Positions 40,166 through 51,583 of a stretch of DNA of 64,000 nt are shown here, one piece after another (the first letter of the stretch is position 1; each line of letters begins with the position of its first letter). The stretch is from positions 1 through 64,000 of IMG/VR virus record IMGVR_UViG_3300043419_000731; one strand, written 5' to 3'. Source of the DNA: a virus. The notes beneath the pieces were generated by a model, which was not told the DNA's origin, searched no databases, and saw only the letters and a list, made by a program, of their open reading frames with translations. Made by a program: the position numbers and the translations under genes.

Positions 40166-40522
40166 ATGAAAACTTTCATAGCAGCATTGTCAGCACTTGG
40201 TTTATTTTCTGCATTCAAATCATTTAGATCAAGATATGCTGTAGGCATTTATTATATTGACAAGCTTGAAGAGGTTCAAGAGCAGATCAGAAAGGCCACT
40301 GGCCCATTTGATATAAATGATCTTAAGCCAGAAAACTATGACAACGCTATGGATGTCAGAGGCACCCCAACACATCTTTGCCCATGCGGTTGCAACATAT
40401 GGAATGTCAAGGTTATATTTGAAGACTTTGAGGTTGCAACATACTTCCTGGATATGGAATGCGCTAATTGTGGGACAATGGCGACAGCACCAACACTATT
40501 AGATAAAGAAAAGATGGAATGA
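40166..40522 (+). CDS. Hypothetical zinc-binding protein with N-terminal hydrophobic segment
   Basis: 'HLCPCGC...CANCG'. Confidence 0.65.
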   Translation: MKTFIAALSALGLFSAFKSFRSRYAVGIYYIDKLEEVQEQIRKATGPFDINDLKPENYDNAMDVRGTPTHLCPCGCNIWNVKVIFEDFEVATYFLDMECANCGTMATAPTLLDKEKME

Positions 40523-40697: not shown

Positions 40698-41819
40698 ATG
40701 AATAAAAAACTAATAACTGTATTACTATCACTATCATTTATTGTGCCTATGGCGGTACATGCTAACGCTGCTCCAGCAGCCCCAACGATTGCTATCCTAG
40801 ACACAGCTCTGGACTCATCGCTACCAGCATTTCAGGGCAAGGTAATTCAAGAAGTTTGCATTCTTCAGTTCGGCCTATGCCCAAATAATCAGTCATTTAT
40901 GGAAGGCCCAGGAGCAGCAGCAATGTCTGCTAACACAATCACTATGAACGGATTTGATCATGGTACTCAAATGGCATCTGTATTTGTTAAAACAAATCCA
41001 AATGCCAATATTGTATTCATTAGAATTATTGGAGATAAGGCAGGAGTTCGTCAGCCAGCAGGGGAGCCAACAGTATATAACGCTCTTAACTGGGTAAAAG
41101 CAAATGCATTAAAGTATAACATTCAGGCAGTAAGTATGTCGCAAGGCCACCATAATATTGGTGCAGCGGGAACAGATTATTGTCCAAAGACTCCAGTAAC
41201 TGAGCAGGCAGTAAAAGACCTTACGGCAATGCAAATTCCAGTGTTCTTTCCTTCTGGAAATGGTCGTGATTACTCACGTATTGATTGGCCAGCATGCCTA
41301 GATGTTTCAGTTTCTGTAGGATATACAGATCAGCAGGGAGAAATTTCTTCTTCTAGCAATAACGATGCAACAAAGCTTGACTTCTTTGCACTAGGATTTT
41401 TTACAAGCGCAGGTCCAGGTAATGTTCTAAAGAATATCTCAGGCTCATCTTCTGCTACACAGGTAATGGCAGCAAACTGGATTGCATATAAAACTGCAAA
41501 GCCAACTGCTACATATCAAGAAACTTTAGATGCATTCAGAAGTACTGCAGTTTCTACCGTTGGCCGTCAAGGAAAGTTTAATAAGCTTGTTGACTTAAAT
41601 AAAGCATTATCATATACTTCAGCCAAGCCCTCTGCACCAAGTGCAGCGGAACTTGCAGCAGCAGAAGCAGCAGCGCAGGCAGCAGCAAAAGCTGCCTTAC
41701 AAACACAAGTGAATGCTGCAATTGCAGCAGCAGAAGCACAGTATCAAATTGAATTAAAGGCTGCACAAGATAAGCTTGCTGCAACAAAGGCGACATGGTT
41801 GGCAAAACTCAATGGCTGA
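40698..41819 (+). CDS. Secreted subtilisin-like (S8) serine peptidase
   Basis: Signal peptide; 'IAILDT' (Asp), 'DHGTQMA' (His), 'PSGN' (oxyanion Asn), 'SGSSSA' (Ser). Confidence 0.82.
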   Translation: MNKKLITVLLSLSFIVPMAVHANAAPAAPTIAILDTALDSSLPAFQGKVIQEVCILQFGLCPNNQSFMEGPGAAAMSANTITMNGFDHGTQMASVFVKTNPNANIVFIRIIGDKAGVRQPAGEPTVYNALNWVKANALKYNIQAVSMSQGHHNIGAAGTDYCPKTPVTEQAVKDLTAMQIPVFFPSGNGRDYSRIDWPACLDVSVSVGYTDQQGEISSSSNNDATKLDFFALGFFTSAGPGNVLKNISGSSSATQVMAANWIAYKTAKPTATYQETLDAFRSTAVSTVGRQGKFNKLVDLNKALSYTSAKPSAPSAAELAAAEAAAQAAAKAALQTQVNAAIAAAEAQYQIELKAAQDKLAATKATWLAKLNG

Positions 41820-42548: not shown

Positions 42549-43637
42549 ATGAAGTCATTTAAGAAACTATCGATTGCTACTGCTGCAGCTCTAGCAATTA
42601 CAACTGTTTCTGTAGCAACATCTTCGGCAGCACCACTAGCCGTTACGGTTGCAACAGTAACAAACGCAACAACATCTGCAGCACCTGCATCAGTTGCAGT
42701 ACCAGCAGCAAACCAGATCACATCTGGTACATCAGTAGCTTTAGCAGCAACTGCTGACACAAATACAGTAGTGTCTTTTGTAGCATCAGATACAATTAAG
42801 CTTGTAACTGCTTTGCACACAACAGATGCACCAAAGACAATTGCTTCTGGAGTATCTACACTATCACTAACATCAGCAGGATCAGCGCTTACTGTTTACG
42901 CTTATACAACAAGCGTTAAGGTTGGAACAGTAACAATTACAAACGGCGGTTATTCAACTGTTGTTTACATCAAGGGAACAGCAGGAGCAGCATCAAATGT
43001 TGCAGTCGCAGTCCCAGCAGCATCAGCAGTTGGAACAATTCCAACAGTAACTGTATCTGCTACAGACGTGTTTGGTAACCCAATTCTTACAGGTGAAACA
43101 ATCACTGCAACAGTTCTCGGTTCAACATTCTCAGATGGGACCATCACAAAGACACTCGTTACTTCTACAACAGCAGAAGCAACAGCAGACACAACTCTAG
43201 TTGCTGGCTCAAAGACTGCATCACTTGCAGTTGGCGTTGCTGGAACAGTTACAGTTGTAGTTACAGGTGCAACATCAGCAGCAACAGTTGCTGGCTTGAC
43301 AGCACCAACAAAGGCAGCACAGGCAGCATTTACTGTATCTGATCTTAATGGTACAGTAGCAACACTTACTGCACAGCTCGCAGCAGAGAAGGCTGGACGT
43401 GCACTTGATGCACAGGCAGCAGCAAATGTTCTCGCAGCAGAGAAGGCTGGACGTGCAGCAGATAAGGTTGCAGCAGATAAGGCACTTGCGGACGCAAAGG
43501 CAGCATCTGATTCAGCAACAGCAACAGCAAAGGCAGCAGCAGATCTTGCTCGTGCAACATATGTTGCAGAGTACAACGCTCTTGCTAAGAAGTGGAACGC
43601 TAAGAATCCAAAGGCTAAGGTTGCACTTAAGAAGTAA
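42549..43637 (+). CDS. Secreted Ala/Thr/Val-rich surface (S-layer-like) protein
   Basis: Signal peptide 'MKSFKKLSIATAAALA...SSAAP'; beta-rich body; helical basic tail 'AEYNALAKKWNAKNPKAKVALKK'; AAGGAG RBS. Confidence 0.65.
   Translation: MKSFKKLSIATAAALAITTVSVATSSAAPLAVTVATVTNATTSAAPASVAVPAANQITSGTSVALAATADTNTVVSFVASDTIKLVTALHTTDAPKTIASGVSTLSLTSAGSALTVYAYTTSVKVGTVTITNGGYSTVVYIKGTAGAASNVAVAVPAASAVGTIPTVTVSATDVFGNPILTGETITATVLGSTFSDGTITKTLVTSTTAEATADTTLVAGSKTASLAVGVAGTVTVVVTGATSAATVAGLTAPTKAAQAAFTVSDLNGTVATLTAQLAAEKAGRALDAQAAANVLAAEKAGRAADKVAADKALADAKAASDSATATAKAAADLARATYVAEYNALAKKWNAKNPKAKVALKK
43377..43457 (+). repeat. 27-bp exact direct repeat (54-bp period)
   Basis: CTCGCAGCAGAGAAGGCTGGACGTGCA at 43377 and 43431 (LAAEKAGRA x2). 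Confidence 0.85.
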
Positions 43638-43704: not shown

Positions 43705-43923
43705 ATGGAATCAAACAAAAGAAGTTTATATAAGTCGTTTACTTGGCCAGCAGTTCATATAGGATTTGTTGGCACATTAGTCTACTTTTTTGAGAAGGCT
43801 ATTACTGGCGAAGCCCACTGGGAGTATGCTGGTGCATTTGCAATAATTTATACTTTATGTGAGATGGTCGGATACTTTTTGCACGAAAGAGCGTGGTCAA
43901 AGTTTGGAAGTAAGGTTAAATAA
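43705..43923 (+). CDS. DUF2061-like small membrane protein
   Basis: 'ES.KRSL.KS.TW' and 'YF.HER.W' motifs; TGaTAGAAT 6 nt upstream. Confidence 0.7.
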   Translation: MESNKRSLYKSFTWPAVHIGFVGTLVYFFEKAITGEAHWEYAGAFAIIYTLCEMVGYFLHERAWSKFGSKVK

Positions 43924-44069: not shown

Positions 44070-44192
44070 ATGCTCAGCGATAAGTGTGAAATAAAAGATT
44101 GTAATAAGCCAGCCAAGCACATAGGCTCATTGCCTGAGACTGGTATTATTGATATGTGTGCAGATTGTTACCACAGATTATATAGGTCATAA
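44070..44192 (+). CDS. Cys-rich microprotein (40 aa)
   Basis: MLSDKCEIKDCNKPAKH...MCADCYHRLYRS. Confidence 0.6.
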   Translation: MLSDKCEIKDCNKPAKHIGSLPETGIIDMCADCYHRLYRS

Positions 44193-44194
44193 TA

Positions 44195-45196
44195 ATGAAT
44201 AAGTATTTAATCAAGGCAGTCCAGCTTGATGTAAATGGCTTATGCAATTCTTCTTGCTGGTTTTGCCCAGTCGCCTATGCTGGTAATCCAAAGTCAGCAA
44301 TAAGAGATATGCCTTTATCAGAGATAGAGGATATATTTATTCAATTGACTGAAGGCAAAGGTGACTTTGTAGATCCAGGTCTATCTATAGTTTACTCTGC
44401 TAATTACAATGAGGTTCTTTTGTATAAAGAGTTTGACGCAATGATGGATCTATATGCAAAGTATAATTTTAAAACTAACATACTAACCAACGGAGTCAAC
44501 CTAACTAAATCTAAAACCGATTTACTTATCAAGCACAAAGATTCAATACAGGGAATACTATTAAACATCCCATCATCTGATCCAGAAACTTGGTCTAAAT
44601 ATGTTGGTATGAATATAAACCTGTTTGATAAAGTAATTAATAATGTTAAGCATTTTATAGAAGAAAATAATAAGCTTGAGAATCCAATATTTATTCATTT
44701 AATGATAAATGGTATCAATGAGCTATCATTGACTGAAAATGGTGGATGGCTTAACCTATTAGAAAATGCTCCAATAATGGATCTAAGCCTAGAGAGTGGT
44801 GATCTAAAAAAGGAGCATGATAGATTTCAATCTATATTCCCTAATTTAAGTATAAGCACAGCTCATCACCTATACGACAGGGCGGCACACCTTGAAACAC
44901 ATAAGGTTATGACTCAGGGACCTGCTATTGAAAAGTATTTAAAGGTAAATGGTAGTCGTGTAATTGGATGCAATGGTGGTCTTGGAGTTAGAAGTAGAAC
45001 TAATGAATGGATACATATTAACCCAAATGGAGATTTATTTATTTGCTGTGCTGATTATGATTTTGAAACAATATATGGCAACGCATTTAGCCAGTCAATA
45101 AAGGAAATATGGCACAGCAAGTCAAGGTCTGACATGGTTGAAGAGTCCTATTCTAAGATGTGCACGAGCTGTTCTGCGGCCATTTGGGGCGACTGA
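44195..45196 (+). CDS. Radical SAM protein with C-terminal SPASM/twitch domain
   Basis: CxxxCxxC 'CNSSCWFC'; 'GC..HINPNGDLFICC.D...GN...SIKEIW...CTSC'. Confidence 0.9.
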   Translation: MNKYLIKAVQLDVNGLCNSSCWFCPVAYAGNPKSAIRDMPLSEIEDIFIQLTEGKGDFVDPGLSIVYSANYNEVLLYKEFDAMMDLYAKYNFKTNILTNGVNLTKSKTDLLIKHKDSIQGILLNIPSSDPETWSKYVGMNINLFDKVINNVKHFIEENNKLENPIFIHLMINGINELSLTENGGWLNLLENAPIMDLSLESGDLKKEHDRFQSIFPNLSISTAHHLYDRAAHLETHKVMTQGPAIEKYLKVNGSRVIGCNGGLGVRSRTNEWIHINPNGDLFICCADYDFETIYGNAFSQSIKEIWHSKSRSDMVEESYSKMCTSCSAAIWGD

Positions 45197-45300
45197 TGTG
45201 CTGGTTATGTGGGTGCGCTGATCATGTTGGCCTAGGCAACGAGAGAGAGCCTGAAGAGAAGCCTGATCCTAATCAACTAAATGCTATAATAGAGTCATAA
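45196..45300 (+). CDS. 34-aa micropeptide MCWLCGCADH...
   Basis: TGATG overlap with radical SAM stop; CxxCGC N-terminus. Confidence 0.55.
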   Translation: MCWLCGCADHVGLGNEREPEEKPDPNQLNAIIES

Positions 45301-45346
45301 GCGGAATACTAGTCCCGCTTAAATAAATAACCTATAGGAGTACCAA

Positions 45347-45505
45347 ATGACAACAAATGGAATTAACGGTGGTGGTTTTGAAGCTGCTAAGCCAGCAGGA
45401 ACTAACAGCATCAATGCACACTATTCAGACAATACAGGATCAGCATTCCCAGCAACAGATAAGTCAACACAAGACGGTTCAGGCGTAGGCCAGGGCGGAA
45501 AGTAA
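45347..45505 (+). CDS. 52-aa Gly/Ser/Thr-rich micropeptide
   Basis: TAGGAG RBS; TGcTATAAT 45282-45290; leader hairpin 45298-45321. Confidence 0.65.
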   Translation: MTTNGINGGGFEAAKPAGTNSINAHYSDNTGSAFPATDKSTQDGSGVGQGGK

Positions 45506-45507
45506 TA

Positions 45508-45657
45508 ATGTCGATCTTTGATAAAGAAGAAGTTGTAGCACCAACACAGGCAGCAGCAGTTGCTGCAGCTATAAAGCCATCGGCTAAGGTTGAGTGCACA
45601 AGAGACACAAGAGGCGATGCTCCTTGTGCAGTGAAGGATTGCGAGAACTGTAACTAA
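45508..45657 (+). CDS. 49-aa micropeptide with Cys-rich C-terminus
   Basis: MSIFDKEEVVAPTQAAAVAAAIKPSAKVECTRDTRGDAPCAVKDCENCN. Confidence 0.6.
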   Translation: MSIFDKEEVVAPTQAAAVAAAIKPSAKVECTRDTRGDAPCAVKDCENCN

Positions 45658-45845
45658 TGTGCATAATGTGTGGTTGCGGAGATTCTAGTAATTTCGGAGA
45701 TATTAAATCACAAGATGCCCCAATGTTTACAATTGGAGATATTTTTGGTGGAGATATAGACGACTTATCAGAGTCAGGTATTAGAGACAGAGATTCTGAA
45801 TCTACTTATAACCCAAGCGGAGAAGTAGAAGACGATAATGACTAA
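45657..45845 (+). CDS. 62-aa acidic micropeptide MCIMCGCG...
   Basis: TAATG overlap; CxxCGC N-terminus. Confidence 0.6.
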   Translation: MCIMCGCGDSSNFGDIKSQDAPMFTIGDIFGGDIDDLSESGIRDRDSESTYNPSGEVEDDND

Positions 45846-46044
45846 TAGTTTTAAAAAAGAAGATGGTACTGGCATGGTTCCACCAGCTAACGCTGGTGCA
45901 CCTGCTGGTGCTGTAACAAGCACAAACACGCCAAAGAGATATCCAAGGCAGGGTGTAAGAATAGATACTAATAAGCATGGCATTCGAAGAGAAACAAGCT
46001 TAGTACCTAAGCCACCTAAAAAAAGCGGTAGAAAGAAAGTTTAA
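45838..46044 (+). CDS. 68-aa basic low-complexity protein
   Basis: ORF track; coupled. Confidence 0.6.
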   Translation: MTNSFKKEDGTGMVPPANAGAPAGAVTSTNTPKRYPRQGVRIDTNKHGIRRETSLVPKPPKKSGRKKV

Positions 46045-46133
46045 TGTGTAGATCATGTGGTGATTGTTCAAAAGAACATTCATTTAACATTGATGATGCA
46101 ATAGATGGGGTTCTAGATTCTCCCATCATTTAG
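46044..46133 (+). CDS. 29-aa micropeptide MCRSCGDC...
   Basis: TAATG overlap. Confidence 0.5.
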   Translation: MCRSCGDCSKEHSFNIDDAIDGVLDSPII

Positions 46134-46144
46134 ATATTGGAGTT

Positions 46145-46789
46145 GTGGTGAGCGTTTTAAATATAGATGCTATTGTAAATCAAGGGTATCAGTTTGAGCA
46201 GCTTGATGAGAACATTCTCCTTATAAAAAACTTTTTAACAGATGAAGACCTCAGTATTCTTTGGGATATTATAAATAATTCTACAGATGAAGACTGGGGT
46301 CTTCAACTGCACTACACCAAGCACCTAGAAGATCGTGCAGAAGAGCTTACTGGCAAGCGTGATATAGATGCTGCAGGCATAGAAAGAACCGATAACTGGG
46401 ACGACAAGGTTACACCATTGAGTGGTAAGACGCATCTTGTTCAAGATTTGCCAGAGCGGGTATCAAAATTTTTTAGCAGTGATTGTGGATTTGAATTCAG
46501 AAGCTTTGGAACTATACAGAGAATGTATAAAGGCACTGAGTTAAAAGCACACTACGATGATAGAGCAGATGTAAGACATGTCTGGGCATCAGTTGCTTAT
46601 ATTAATGATGATTATAATGGCGGAGAACTTTACTTTACACACAAAAATATACAGATTAAACCACCAAAGGGTAGTATCATGATATTCCCAGCAACTGAGG
46701 AATACGAGCATGGAGTAAAGCATGTAATAGATGGCCCATTCAGATATGTGCTTCCTGCATTTATCTTCGATCACTCTAAAAAGATATAA
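46145..46789 (+). CDS. Prolyl-4-hydroxylase-like 2OG-Fe(II) oxygenase
   Basis: 'AHYD', 'YINDDYNGGELYF', 'HGVKHV..G.RY'. Confidence 0.85.
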   Translation: MVSVLNIDAIVNQGYQFEQLDENILLIKNFLTDEDLSILWDIINNSTDEDWGLQLHYTKHLEDRAEELTGKRDIDAAGIERTDNWDDKVTPLSGKTHLVQDLPERVSKFFSSDCGFEFRSFGTIQRMYKGTELKAHYDDRADVRHVWASVAYINDDYNGGELYFTHKNIQIKPPKGSIMIFPATEEYEHGVKHVIDGPFRYVLPAFIFDHSKKI

Positions 46790-47847
46790 TGTATTCATTT
46801 GAAACAAGAGCCATTTCCAGCGGAAGGCCAGATCGATACCCAGATGGACCGCTAAACACACCAGTATCACTTAATTCTACCTACACAGCAGGTGGATCAT
46901 GGGGATATGGTCGGTATGGAAATGATTCATGCATCTCGCTAGAGGAAACGATATCTCAATTAGAGGGCGGAAAGACATTAGCATTTGCATCAGGAATGTC
47001 AGCAATAAGCTCTTTGTTTTCAACAATACCAGTTGGATCAGTAGTTGTCTCATCAAATCAGGGCTATGCTGGAGTTAATGCAACTATGCAAAAACTTCAT
47101 GATGAAGGCAAGATATTTGCAAGATTTGTTGACATATCAAATACTGGAGAAGTTTTAGCCAGCATCGAAGGTGCTTACATGCTATGGCTGGAGTCTCCAA
47201 CAAATCCAAGACTTGATATAGCTGATTTAAACAGACTTATCAGAGCATGTAATAGAACTGGAGTTATTGTTGGAGTTGATAATACTTTTGCAACTCCCAT
47301 TAACCAGAGGCCTCTGGAGTTGGGTGCAGATATGTCTATGAACTCTGTCACTAAGTATTTAGCTGGACATAGTGATGTATTGATGGGCTCTATATCTTTT
47401 AATAATCAAGGCCTATATGATTCAGTAGAGTTTGCAAGAAAAATCAATGGCACAATACCACAGCCATTTGAAGCATGGCTTGCCCTCAGAGGAATTAGAA
47501 CATTTCCATTAAGATTTAAAAAAGCAGAATCAAATGCAAAGCAGCTTTTTAATTTAATTAGTAATCACCCAATGATTTCAAAAGTTTATTACCCAGGGTT
47601 TGGCGCCATGATCTCATTTGAAGTAGACGCTTCACCAGAAGAAGTTGAAGATATTTGCAACAGATCAAAGCTTATTGCTAATGCTACTAGCCTTGGAAGC
47701 GTGGAATCAATATGGGAAAGAAGAAGGCGTTGGGCCCTAGAGAGCCCTTTGGTCTCTGAAAGTTTAATTAGATTATCTGTTGGATGCGAGGATGTCGAAG
47801 ATATCTGGAATGATATAATAGAATCATTAAGCAAATATGCCAGATAG
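46789..47847 (+). CDS. Cystathionine gamma-synthase/lyase family PLP enzyme (MetB/MetC-like)
   Basis: 'YGRYGN', 'AFASGMSA', 'ESPTNP', 'VDNTFATP', 'SVTKYLAGHSDV', 'SLGSVES', 'RLSVG.E'. Confidence 0.92.
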   Translation: MYSFETRAISSGRPDRYPDGPLNTPVSLNSTYTAGGSWGYGRYGNDSCISLEETISQLEGGKTLAFASGMSAISSLFSTIPVGSVVVSSNQGYAGVNATMQKLHDEGKIFARFVDISNTGEVLASIEGAYMLWLESPTNPRLDIADLNRLIRACNRTGVIVGVDNTFATPINQRPLELGADMSMNSVTKYLAGHSDVLMGSISFNNQGLYDSVEFARKINGTIPQPFEAWLALRGIRTFPLRFKKAESNAKQLFNLISNHPMISKVYYPGFGAMISFEVDASPEEVEDICNRSKLIANATSLGSVESIWERRRRWALESPLVSESLIRLSVGCEDVEDIWNDIIESLSKYAR

Positions 47848-48328: not shown

Positions 48329-48913
48329 ATGAAAATTAAATCAATCGGATTAAATCTTAACGGCGGAAGAGGCTTACGCACATTTTTAACAGATTCAGGC
48401 TTTAAGGTAAAATACTTCTATGATTACAGCGGAATCCCAGTAGGCACATATTACGAGAACCTATCTGGAATTGAGTCATATCTAGATTCTGTTGATGACG
48501 GATCAGTAGATGTTATTATTGACTTCCCAATTAACCTAGCATTTAAGCATGCCTACGAAAAGGATTCAGATACAAAGTTTATCTGTCTCCAAAAAGACGT
48601 AGAGAAGTGGCTAGATGTATGGGGTAAGACTATGCAGAAGTATGCAAGCGCTGAGCCATATCAGTTTGAAGAGGCTTTCTGTAAGGCATATTTAGATACA
48701 TCAAAAACTAAGATTTCAGATCTCACAGAAGAAGAGCTAAGAACTATCTATGCTGAGCATTATGCTGCAGTGGAAGAATTCTTCAAAGATAAGCCTAACT
48801 TTTTAAAGGTACACCTAGATGATCCACAGATCTCTGCCAAGCTAAGAACATTCTTTGAAATAACATCAGATATCGAGTTTGATACCTTGTCTGATGAAGC
48901 GGCTATTGCGTAG
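48329..48913 (+). CDS. P-loop sulfotransferase-like protein (degenerate)
   Basis: N-terminal 'IGLNLNGGRGL..FL..GF'; 'KFI...KD.EKW..' and 'H...V.EFF...P.FL.V' pattern. Confidence 0.5.
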   Translation: MKIKSIGLNLNGGRGLRTFLTDSGFKVKYFYDYSGIPVGTYYENLSGIESYLDSVDDGSVDVIIDFPINLAFKHAYEKDSDTKFICLQKDVEKWLDVWGKTMQKYASAEPYQFEEAFCKAYLDTSKTKISDLTEEELRTIYAEHYAAVEEFFKDKPNFLKVHLDDPQISAKLRTFFEITSDIEFDTLSDEAAIA

Positions 48914-49876: not shown

Positions 49877-50590
49877 ATGTCAAACATGGAAAAAGTAACT
49901 ATAGAAGGTGATCTATGGTACATAGAGAACTTCTTAACACAAGAAGAATTGGATTTCTTTAAGCCTTTTATGGATGATCATGATGGATGGTATACAACCA
50001 TGCGTTCACCATACAAAAATATTTTAAATAAGTTTATTGAAAATGATATTCCAAGAAATGAAGATGGAACAACAGGAGTTGCAACACCTGATGACCCAAG
50101 AATTTACTACCCAATGTTAAGCGACCCAGGTGGGGTATTTGATAGATTGCTTCAGGTTATGCCACCAATATACCGACCACATGCATCGCTTCAGACATTT
50201 AAGTATTGCACAGATGAAGAGATTGCAAGAGATTTAAATGATGGAGATAGAGAAAAGCTCACGCTTGGCGGTACTATCCCACTTGATCCTAGCAAGGTAG
50301 ATTGGGCAATGAACTGGCACTCTGAATGGGACGAAACAAGCCCAGTGCCTCCATTTAAGCTTTCATTATCTTTATATCTCAATGATGATTACGAGGGCGG
50401 AATCCTTGAGTTTAAGCATAAGCCATACAAGATTAAGCCTAAAGCAGGAATGCTAGTAGGAGTACCAGTAACGAAAGACTTCGAGCATAGAGTTACTAGA
50501 ATTACTTCTGGCAATTGGAGACACACATTATATGGTGCTTCATGGAATGATCCAGACAATATACCTGTGAGTACAGCTGACGACTGCTAA
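49877..50590 (+). CDS. Prolyl-4-hydroxylase-like 2OG-Fe(II) oxygenase
   Basis: 'WHSE', 'YLNDDYEGG.LEF', 'HRV..I.SG.WR'. Confidence 0.8.
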   Translation: MSNMEKVTIEGDLWYIENFLTQEELDFFKPFMDDHDGWYTTMRSPYKNILNKFIENDIPRNEDGTTGVATPDDPRIYYPMLSDPGGVFDRLLQVMPPIYRPHASLQTFKYCTDEEIARDLNDGDREKLTLGGTIPLDPSKVDWAMNWHSEWDETSPVPPFKLSLSLYLNDDYEGGILEFKHKPYKIKPKAGMLVGVPVTKDFEHRVTRITSGNWRHTLYGASWNDPDNIPVSTADDC

Positions 50591-50593
50591 TTC

Positions 50594-51583
50594 ATGGAGC
50601 TAAATAGCAAGACTATATTCATAAATCTAGGTGCATTCAACGAGTTGTATCTAGACTTAATGATAAGTAATTGTTTAAGTAATGCTGAATTTCCTGACAG
50701 AATTAAGATAGGCTTATTCTTGCACGATAGCCACGGCTTAAAAGAAGACCTATCTGCATACTCTAAGAACTTAAAGGTAGGCTACTTTGATTACCCAGCA
50801 GCCCTAGGTTGCTGTATTGGAAGAGAGATGGCTCATGCGTTCTATGATGGGGAAGACTATTATCTTCAATTAGATGCACATATGCTATTTCAAAAAAACT
50901 GGGACACAATCTTAATAAATAAGTTTGAAAAGATAAAGTTGAAGTATCCTAAGCCAGTTATATCATACTATGTTCCGTGGTGGGCTGTCAAACAAAATGG
51001 AAAATTCTTTGCATATTCTTCAGATATAAAGACATTCCATAATGGCGGAATGAAGTTTGATGTTGAAGATAGCCTTAGAGCTAAGTATCCTAAGCCTACA
51101 GGAGACTATACAAAGTGGGAAGAAATACCAGAAGGATACATTGAGCATCACCAGATAGCAGGACACTTTATTTTTTCTGATCCAAGCGTATTTGATGAAG
51201 TAAGACCAGATACCACCATCATGTTTGGTCCAGAAGAATCACTGCTGGCTTTAAGGTTATGGACAAGAGGATATAGAATATTTGCAATAAATGAACCCGT
51301 GGTCTGGCATTTAAATAAGGGCTATAATAATGTTAACCCGTACATGAGAAGGTCTGCATACTTTAAGACTGATGAGTTAGCTAAACATTATTTTGATAAG
51401 AATCACAGGGCATTAAAGAAGTCAAGGAAGATATTTACGGGAGAATACACGGGCTACTGGGGTGCTCCAAACATGGAATTATTGGCGGCATATGAGCATG
51501 CAGCAAAGCTATCCTATAAAGAGTATTTTAGATTACTTGATGAGAGATACCCAAACGATCCACCTGAATCAAGGATGCTATAG
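50594..51583 (+). CDS. GT60 / Gnt1-like GlcNAc transferase (GT-A fold)
   Basis: 'TIFI', 'A.FPDRI.IG', 'YDGEDYYLQLDAH..F.KNWD', 'KPVISYY', 'AGHFIF', 'GPEE..L.LRLWTRGY'. Confidence 0.8.
   Translation: MELNSKTIFINLGAFNELYLDLMISNCLSNAEFPDRIKIGLFLHDSHGLKEDLSAYSKNLKVGYFDYPAALGCCIGREMAHAFYDGEDYYLQLDAHMLFQKNWDTILINKFEKIKLKYPKPVISYYVPWWAVKQNGKFFAYSSDIKTFHNGGMKFDVEDSLRAKYPKPTGDYTKWEEIPEGYIEHHQIAGHFIFSDPSVFDEVRPDTTIMFGPEESLLALRLWTRGYRIFAINEPVVWHLNKGYNNVNPYMRRSAYFKTDELAKHYFDKNHRALKKSRKIFTGEYTGYWGAPNMELLAAYEHAAKLSYKEYFRLLDERYPNDPPESRML

Follow-up and report, generated by a model that had tools for sequence, protein, structure and literature searches.

A radical SAM enzyme and a 34-residue micropeptide form a strictly linked accessory cassette in the micropeptide array of a lake-phage family

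The DNA analysed here (the window) is the first 64 kb, positions 1 to 64,000, of viral record IMGVR_UViG_3300043419_000731, a 120,465-bp sequence that CheckV rates as complete and that carries phage backbone genes for a DnaE-type polymerase, a DnaB helicase, the large terminase subunit and tail proteins. On its plus strand, between positions 44070 and 47847, lie a gene for a radical S-adenosylmethionine (SAM) enzyme (rSAM), seven very small open reading frames (ORFs), and genes for an oxygenase and a pyridoxal phosphate (PLP) enzyme. An original prediction had viewed this stretch as a possible phage system for peptides that are ribosomally synthesized and then modified after translation (RiPPs), and every ORF that it named is present. 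We find that the region is two separate things, a backbone micropeptide array and an accessory cassette inserted into that array. The cassette is made up of the rSAM gene (44195-45196), the gene of a 34-residue peptide (the 34-mer, or p34; 45196-45300) and usually a gene for a PLP enzyme of the cystathionine-gamma-lyase family (CGL; 46789-47847). The other six peptides, of 40, 52, 49, 62, 68 and 29 residues, are a conserved array in the backbone of a lake-phage family. This result corrects the tempting view of the seven micro-ORFs as a single RiPP cluster.

One of seven micropeptides is strictly linked to the enzyme

When viral contigs were searched with the 34-mer alone, an rSAM gene was found no more than 1.1 kb upstream in 45 of 45 loci, with the peptide directly after the rSAM gene in 39 of them and after an rSAM-CGL pair in 6. 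Metagenomic copies of the 34-mer adjoin an rSAM gene in 32 of 32 cases, a count that leaves out two further pattern matches in metagenomes that are unrelated sequences. Presence and absence were then compared in 87 syntenic loci, free of redundancy and flanked on each side by anchor genes, of which 10 have the rSAM gene and 77 lack it. The 34-mer is present in every locus with the enzyme (10/10) and in none without it (0/77), leaving no discordant locus, and the CGL gene is present in 9/10 and 0/77, respectively. The array peptides occur on both sides of this division: the 40-mer in 10/10 loci with the enzyme and 49/77 without it, the 52-mer in 6/10 and 69/77, the 49-mer in 6/10 and 19/77, the 68-mer in 10/10 and 77/77, and the 29-mer in 8/10 and 52/77.

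Searches with the remaining Cys-rich peptides gave the same picture of independence. Peptides beginning MCxECGC, which take the position of the 62-mer in relatives, were found in at least 184 viral loci, and the rSAM gene is absent from 74 of the 80 that were fetched; the 29-mer family was found in at least 238 viral loci, with the enzyme absent from 72 of 80 fetched. Close homologues of the 62-mer itself (MC[DTE]MCGCG...) are present in some rSAM loci, and tblastn detected no direct 62-mer homologue in loci L001-L018 at E <= 0.01. Five related genomes of 114-116 kb, which are 92-100% complete and of which two have terminal repeats, keep the array and have the rSAM and CGL genes nowhere; as a positive control, the same rSAM query recovers the window gene at E 5e-174. 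In the opposite direction, loci L011-L015 carry the rSAM(-CGL)-34-mer unit without any other micropeptide.

These distributions bear directly on the proposal of a single phage RiPP cluster that spans the entire stretch. In it, the rSAM/SPASM enzyme would act on several neighbouring precursors by introducing thioether or C-C cross-links, and its chief target would be the 49-mer, with an Ala-rich leader and a four-Cys core. The features noted for the 49-mer are real, including its Ala-rich N-terminal half, the C-x9-C-x4-C-x2-C spacing and the RGD, and the conservation of its C-terminal four-Cys segment beside an N-terminal half of varying length would suit a core and leader, as would the presence of several Cys-bearing micropeptides within 1 kb of the enzyme. 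Set against this, the array peptides stand in the same order in the 77 syntenic loci and the five genomes without the enzyme, the enzyme and 34-mer stand without the array peptides in L011-L015, and the enzyme has no RiPP recognition element (RRE) and only five C-terminal Cys residues. We regard a single cluster as very improbable. The co-occurrence across related phages that the original prediction had offered as its own check separates the peptides: six of the seven, including the 49-mer, are mostly found without the enzyme, which is the unlinked outcome that the prediction had named as refuting it. For the 34-mer the coupling to the rSAM gene that had been predicted is borne out both by the overlap of its start codon with the rSAM stop codon (TGATG) and by the strict linkage. 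In total, the 34-mer and the rSAM are strictly linked, as tightly as comparative genomics can show, and a direct enzyme-peptide relationship is well supported.

A BtrN-like enzyme with a predicted single auxiliary cluster

The rSAM gene (44195-45196, plus strand) encodes 333 amino acids that match the Pfam Radical_SAM model (PF04055) at E 9.9e-9 and 36 bits, above the cut-off of 29.5, placing the protein in the radical SAM superfamily. The CX3CX2C motif is formed by C17, C21 and C24, each of which is at least 90% conserved over 14 homologues down to 47% identity, the sole exception in this alignment being one N-terminally truncated gene call. The original prediction had called the protein an rSAM-SPASM enzyme, and its C-terminal region does match the Pfam SPASM model (E 8.9e-11, 42 bits). 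The match to TIGR04085 covers only model positions 6-66 of 93 and scores under the cut-off. SPASM domains proper are defined by a seven-Cys motif, CX9-15GX4C ... CX2CX5CX3C ... C, for two auxiliary clusters, and this motif is absent from the 14-homologue alignment. Five C-terminal Cys residues are conserved instead (C259, C284, C285, C323 and C326), with the protein stopping 7 residues past C326, which is enough for one auxiliary cluster of the Twitch type.

The best sequence match in the PDB is BtrN (phmmer, E 6e-7), with an alignment over the N-terminal core as well as the terminal C-x2-C, the C-terminal domain falling on the BtrN Twitch domain. An AF2 model of the enzyme (pLDDT, the predicted local distance difference test, 82.7) has BtrN and DesII as its top ranks in Foldseek, and a structural comparison (VIA) puts BtrN first, with Z 16.9 and a root-mean-square deviation of 3.5 Å over 227/246 residues. 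The next structural neighbours (SuiB, ChlB, DesII, anSME and SkfB) stand at about 14.5, roughly 2 units under BtrN; individual scores are 14.7 for SuiB, 14.2 for SkfB and for anSME, 13.6 for CteB and 12.4 for EpeE. By sequence match and modelled fold, the enzyme is classed as BtrN-like and of the Twitch type, with five C-terminal Cys residues that suffice for one predicted auxiliary cluster. It shares with BtrN, a 2-deoxy-scyllo-inosamine dehydrogenase, the CX3CX2C near the N-terminus, C-terminal Cys residues for one auxiliary [4Fe-4S] cluster and the aligned C-x2-C. Unlike BtrN, to which it is 15-18% identical, it is about 85 residues longer with an invariant Cys-Cys pair, lacks an aminoglycoside gene context and is tied to a micropeptide.

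The original prediction had noted against itself that it saw no RRE/PqqD domain and no exporter, and our searches agree: neither the enzyme nor the neighbouring ORFs scanned have an RRE/PqqD-type Pfam match, and no protease or ABC exporter was found nearby. An N-terminal RRE would have no room in the enzyme because the CX3CX2C motif begins at residue 17.

The enzyme belongs to a family of hundreds of metagenomic proteins that is essentially viral, with 216 matches on viral contigs and with ESM Atlas clusters labelled Uroviricota. In cellular genomes only 6 matches were found among 185,579 species, in neighbourhoods (Peptococcales, Rhodocyclales and other metagenome-assembled genomes) that are uninformative. 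Cultured-phage records contain no match to the enzyme and its region by blastn (DNA) or tblastn (protein), and PHROGs yielded a weak match to the rSAM and none to the CGL or any micropeptide. Several database versions of the enzyme (P0075, P0078-P0080, P0082 and P0084-P0088) have 294-296 amino acids and lack the CX3CX2C. At L061 (1340-1470), the only locus of a short form that was inspected, the upstream frame is open and encodes CX3CX2C, with no ATG. As the N-terminal frame of L061 is open and intact, the short forms are probably gene calls that miss a non-ATG start and not decayed genes.

A sister clade keeps the enzyme with different partners

Viral loci whose rSAM is at least 56% identical to the window protein are termed the window clade here, and those at 49% identity or less the sister clade. 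In the sister clade, a 76-residue Cys protein (C-x2-C-x9-C-x2-C-G-C-x12-C-P) with a sub-threshold match to DUF6171 lies directly upstream of the enzyme in 32 of 36 loci, and a GT60-like glycosyltransferase lies directly downstream in 31 of 36. Both genes are absent from the immediate neighbourhood of the enzyme in the window clade, which has the 34-mer after the rSAM gene instead. The two clades differ by fixed changes at 11 sites, and five of these (5/11) are at residues 241-286, around the auxiliary-cluster Cys residues. In a maximum-likelihood tree of the enzyme (a quick search, with SH-aLRT support only), every 34-mer-linked enzyme falls in one clade of 34 rows with an SH-aLRT of 100 and a stem length of 0.43, and on the compared sequences the pair of enzyme and 34-mer arose once.

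A derivation of the 34-mer from the DUF6171-like Cys protein, as its remnant, is not supported, since the hhalign alignment spans just the 8-residue C-x2-C-G-C at a probability of 1.5%. An AF2 model of the DUF6171-like protein reached a pLDDT of 74.8, and Foldseek found no PDB match for it. The three-gene module of DUF6171-like protein, rSAM and GT60-like transferase recurs in about 30 viral loci (L064-L099, e.g., L080:3760-5913). Its frequent neighbours are genes for tail fibres or collagen-like repeats and for an NAD-dependent epimerase, a setting that suggests virion-protein or glycan modification.

Remote homologues of the rSAM, found in an exhaustive representative search, include fusions to GT60-type GlcNAc transferases and to GT2 glycosyltransferases, and one carries a fused metal-binding domain with CxxCxxCC. 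The window itself has a GT60-type GlcNAc transferase (PF11397, E 1e-30), which begins 3 nt after a second P4H-like 2OG oxygenase (49877-51583 for the two genes, plus strand); this is the family that directly follows the enzyme in the sister clade and is fused to it in the remote homologues. Genome-wide co-occurrence of GT60 with the rSAM in the window clade was rejected: complete genome G006 has the cassette without GT60, and the rSAM-less genome G002 has GT60.

An enzyme with these relatives might act on a carbohydrate or glycoprotein, oxidising or epimerising it in the manner of BtrN or DesII, with the 34-mer a separate metal-binding or regulatory peptide that is merely co-inherited and co-translated. 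BtrN as the top match by both sequence and structure, the glycosyltransferase fusions, the downstream GT60-like gene of the sister clade and the P4H-like, GT60-like and sulfotransferase-like genes of the window all point in this direction. Hitch-hiking, however, poorly explains why all 77 copies of the 34-mer (77/77) adjoin an rSAM gene, in two gene orders and two genomic contexts, and the comparison of G006 with G002 shows that GT60 is not co-inherited with the enzyme in the window clade. We consider this explanation unlikely.

The 34-mer is under selection as a peptide and begins like HypB

The 34-mer (45196-45300, plus strand), whose ATG overlaps the rSAM stop codon, starts M-C-W-x-C-G-C-A-D-H-x-G-x-G-N. 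In 21 variants no change is seen at M1, C2, W3, C5, G6, C7, A8, H10 or G12, and almost none at D9, G14 and N15. Although synonymous change is saturated, 10 of the first 15 residues do not vary. The acidic tail does, and the whole peptide is only 23-25 residues long in some loci. The first 17 codons exist in 31 nucleotide versions with almost no amino-acid change; Cys and His are each encoded by both of their codons, Gly by all four and Ala by three. Such codon variety with fixed residues indicates selection on the peptide and not on an RNA element.

ORFs that start with MCxxCG occur three times in the whole 120-kb genome, all at 45196-46133 and within 940 bp after the rSAM gene, compared to 0.02 expected from shuffled sequence. 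Two of them, the 34-mer and the 62-mer, carry C2, C5, G6 and C7; the third, the 29-mer, carries C2, C5 and C8. Among 18,950 NCBIfam models the only match was to HypB_prefix: HypB_prefix_1 aligns to residues 1-17 of the 34-mer (E 0.03) and to residues 1-16 of the 62-mer (E 0.042). The N-terminal CxxCGC of HypB, with Cys at positions 2, 5 and 7, is present in both peptides. They are not members of the HypB family, since peptides of 29-62 residues have no G-domain and the scores lie under the cut-off.

The Ni(II) site of HypB is square-planar, and methionine aminopeptidase cleaves off Met when the next residue is small, as Cys is. HypB CxxCGC binds Ni(II) with picomolar affinity, its ligands being the amine at the N-terminus and the Cys2, Cys5 and Cys7 thiolates (PMC12284835). 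The motif occupies precisely residues 2-7 of every phage paralogue, as it would have to if the site uses the amine and so needs N-terminal placement. It is a reasonable inference from this likeness that the 34-mer works like the HypB N-terminal site. The phage peptides further resemble HypB in that M-C-x-x-C-G-C forms residues 1-7 and is followed by a disordered acidic or His-bearing stretch. They differ from it in being free-standing peptides of 23-68 residues without a GTPase domain, in a window where no hydrogenase genes were seen, and the 34-mer adds the invariant Trp3, Ala8, Asp9 and His10 and the G-x-G-N.

The phage genome has no peptide deformylase and no Ni-SOD match, the latter a negative that carries no information since the control for Ni-SOD also matched nowhere, and in the ESM Atlas all matches to the 34-mer scored <0.9. 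HypB-like starts are also carried by other small peptides a few kb from sister-clade rSAM genes. Two 32-residue peptides (L074:4965-5063 and L077:5926-6024) start M-C-A-K-C-G-C-N-C-K and have nine Cys residues with metallothionein-like C-x-C spacing, and L074 also has a 58-residue Lys-rich peptide starting M-C-A-T-C-G-C-G, which shows that such starts are found in several unrelated micropeptide families of lake phages.

Metal-binding partner or substrate of the enzyme

Our leading reading, which we hold tentatively and at somewhat less than an even chance, is that the 34-mer may be a dedicated metal- or Fe-S-binding partner of the rSAM. Removal of Met1 would expose the N-terminal Cys, which together with Cys5 and Cys7 would form a site as in HypB, with the invariant Asp-His added, and the overlap of stop and start codons would lead to roughly 1:1 synthesis of enzyme and peptide. 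The 34-mer could then carry a metal or an Fe-S centre on or close to that side of the enzyme where the auxiliary cluster lies, and there deliver or rebuild this cluster or pass electrons, while the CGL might supply cysteine or sulfide.

Several features favour a partner. The gene overlap predicts near-equimolar synthesis, and the motif seems to have a function of its own because MCxxCG(x)C paralogues occur in at least 70 phages without the enzyme. The sister clade pairs its rSAM with a small C-x2-C-G-C protein, and in one remote relative a Cys-rich metal domain is fused to the enzyme. Further support comes from the missing RRE and leader, from the grouping of clade-specific changes near the auxiliary-cluster ligands, and from the CGL, which follows the rSAM and nothing else and could be the source of cysteine or sulfide. 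A loose analogy is offered by LipA, an rSAM whose auxiliary cluster is rebuilt by the Cys-ligand carrier NfuA/IscU and the PLP-dependent, sulfur-mobilising IscS. Three analogous parts come together there and in the phage cassette: an rSAM with an auxiliary cluster, a small module with Cys3(+His/Asp), and a PLP enzyme that acts in sulfur metabolism. The CGL is no desulfurase of the NifS/IscS type, however, the 34-mer lacks the scaffold fold of U-type or A-type proteins, and the CGL gene is not always present.

A number of points weigh against a metal-binding partner. The HypB_prefix_1 scores of 15.7 bits for the 34-mer and 15.2 bits for the 62-mer compare with a curated cut-off of 30, the matches rest on about 17 residues, and the invariant Trp3, Asp9, His10 and G-x-G-N exceed the needs of HypB-type binding. 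A functional subunit with some 15 conserved residues on a soluble enzyme would be unusual, and peptides of 20-35 residues with invariant reactive residues beside an rSAM are typically substrates, as PqqA and MftA are. The peptide-modifying enzymes SuiB, ChlB, anSME and SkfB trail BtrN by just ~2 Z units in the structural comparison, and the CGL gene is missing within 5 kb in 19 of the 45 viral loci with the 34-mer. Finally, two tips nested in the clade of 34-mer-linked enzymes lack the peptide. At L061 a deletion has removed the N-terminal portion of the 34-mer gene, leaving a tail remnant and an intact rSAM gene, and L058 has an rSAM without any 34-mer, so the enzyme is not lost at once when the peptide goes.

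The 34-mer may alternatively be the substrate of the rSAM, a leaderless precursor of the RiPP or cofactor type comparable to PqqA/PqqE and MftA/MftC, which we consider possible but rather doubtful. The enzyme would cross-link or otherwise alter C-W-x-C-G-C-A-D-H, for example through a Cys thioether or a Cys/Trp/His link, the CGL would serve as a tailoring C-S lyase, and what results would be either a metal-binding peptide made rigid or a small cofactor. The strict linkage and single origin of the pair fit a substrate. So does the pattern of conservation, which is that of cofactor precursors: the residues held invariant are precisely those that are reactive, and the tail can vary. Some rSAMs that modify peptides have no RRE, and such enzymes are among the structural neighbours (EpeE, SkfB, anSME and SuiB), and the CGL co-varies with the rSAM only. 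The cassette without GT60 in G006 also fits, as does the finding that no other phage-encoded accessory gene in the syntenic loci or in G006 co-varies with the enzyme as a possible source of substrate.

Against the substrate explanation, no leader or follower is conserved apart from the presumed core, and no RRE, protease or exporter was found. The enzyme has a predicted single auxiliary cluster, has a sugar dehydrogenase as its best match and has relatives fused to glycosyltransferases; paralogues with the same motif need no rSAM, and the stop/start overlap speaks against an excess of peptide over enzyme. In comparison with PqqA/PqqE and MftA/MftC, the phage pair likewise consists of a very short peptide with invariant reactive residues, beside an auxiliary-cluster rSAM and inherited with it as a unit. 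It differs in lacking a PqqD/RRE chaperone, in having a predicted one-cluster domain and not a full SPASM domain, in the position of the conserved segment at the extreme N-terminus, and in its partner, which is a CGL-family PLP protein and not the Pqq/Mft tailoring set. The maturases of sacti- and ranthipeptides (AlbA, CteB and SkfB) are similar to the extent that an rSAM stands beside a Cys-rich small peptide, and CteB and SkfB are among the structural neighbours, but the phage system has no N-terminal RRE, leader, seven-Cys SPASM motif or nearby protease/ABC exporter.

A more specific proposal, which we think unlikely though not negligible, is that the 34-mer is a leaderless precursor from which the Twitch rSAM and a CGL-type C-S lyase would make a cross-linked, tight metal-binding peptide or cofactor, a phage metallophore built on the HypB nickel motif. 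If this were true, the array's free MCxxCG(x)C peptides would be relatives of it that carry no modification, and these phages would manipulate host Ni, Zn or Fe handling in infection.

Pairs of an rSAM and a tiny peptide are the source of several cofactors and antibiotics. The pair described here is found in dozens of lake viral contigs, with a single origin and perfect co-presence and co-absence in syntenic loci, and our literature search found no paper on this pair, on any pairing of an rSAM with a tiny peptide in phages, or on DUF6171. Either a micropeptide metallo-subunit of an rSAM or a leaderless substrate that gives a metal-binding product would, if true, be new. In addition, free HypB-prefix-like peptides in hundreds of viral contigs of this phage family point to an unstudied role of metal-binding micropeptides in infection.

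The CGL-family enzyme and looser members of the cassette

As had been predicted, a P4H-like oxygenase and a cystathionine lyase follow the micropeptides. The CGL gene (46789-47847, plus strand) encodes 352 residues that belong to the Cys_Met_Meta_PP family (PF01053, 268 bits, E 1e-79). Its best NCBIfam model is PRK07582 (cystathionine gamma-lyase), at 292 bits against a cut-off of 440; no NCBIfam equivalog cut-off was reached, so the assignment is at the level of the family and does not give the exact reaction. The PLP-lysine motif is intact (S-V-T-K-Y-L), and S-x-T-K-Y-L-x-G-H-S-D aligns to solved structures of CGL and CGS. Compared to solved CGLs, the protein is without a loop, some 16 residues long, that follows the Y-P-G motif. 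The gene has no PHROG match, and an auxiliary metabolic gene of CGL type appears to be absent from cultured-phage collections. Among the 45 viral loci with the 34-mer, a CGL gene lies within 5 kb in 26.

The P4H-like 2OG-Fe(II) oxygenase gene (46145-46789, plus strand; Pfam 2OG-FeII_Oxy_3, E 4.9e-11) overlaps the start of the CGL gene with its end. Close orthologues (~70% identity) adjoin the CGL gene in some cassette loci only, and its presence is variable. Further downstream, a 194-residue protein with a Sulfotransfer_4 match (48329-48913, plus strand; E 1.6e-8) has a homologue directly after the 34-mer in L011-L015, L037 and L038, and this sulfotransferase-like gene may belong loosely to the cassette as its fourth gene.

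The backbone micropeptide array

All seven micro-ORFs of the region are kept as proteins in related viral contigs, and none has a Pfam or PHROG family above threshold. The six array genes are all on the plus strand. The first, upstream of the rSAM gene, encodes a 40-residue zinc-ribbon-like peptide (44070-44192; C-x4-C ... C-x2-C) and is a conserved member. The others follow the 34-mer: the hydrophilic 52-mer (45347-45505) and the 49-mer (45508-45657), whose C-terminal motif reads C-T-R-D-T-R-G-D..C..K-D-C-E-N-C, both conserved members; the HypB-prefix-like 62-mer (45657-45845), which starts M-C-I-M-C-G-C-G; the conserved 68-mer (45838-46044) with a basic C-terminus (N-K-H-G-I-R-R-E ... G-R-K-K-V); and the 29-mer (46044-46133), which starts M-C-x-x-C-G-x-C-S-K-E-H and has an acidic tail.

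Directly 5' of the 52-mer gene is a plus-strand element (45299-45346) made up of a GCGG-N9-CCCGC hairpin, an A/T-rich leader and a GGAG ribosome-binding site. The hairpin and the leader T-T-A-A-A-T-A-A-A-T-A-A-C-C-T-A-T-A-G-G-A-G are nearly identical before the 52-mer gene in dozens of phages, and the hairpin always directly precedes that gene whether or not an rSAM is present (e.g., L115:5106 and L233:2471). A promoter together with a hairpin had been predicted here. The hairpin is real and conserved, but a scan with the sigma-70 consensus found no promoter in 45300-45346, and its overall count was at the shuffle or chance level. The hairpin and leader may serve the array as a conserved element for regulation or RNA processing.

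Upstream, the array is anchored by a subtilase gene (40698-41819, plus strand; Pfam Peptidase_S8) with a signal peptide and by a gene for a 362-residue Ala/Thr-rich protein (42549-43637, plus strand) whose N-terminus is signal-like and which matches no family; in related phages the two genes are conserved upstream of the array. Between these anchors and the 40-mer gene lies a constant upstream member of the array, a gene for a 72-residue DUF2061 predicted membrane protein (43705-43923, plus strand), which is present in 64 of 80 loci of the MCxECGC family. Just upstream of the protease gene, a 22-residue ORF (40454-40522, plus strand) begins M-E-C-x-x-C-G and continues A-T-A-P-T-[PL]-[IL]-D. 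It is kept in many related loci as M-[EQ]-C-x-x-C-G-S-x-A-T-A-P-T-P-I-D and may be a fourth CxxCG micropeptide, with the motif shifted by one residue.

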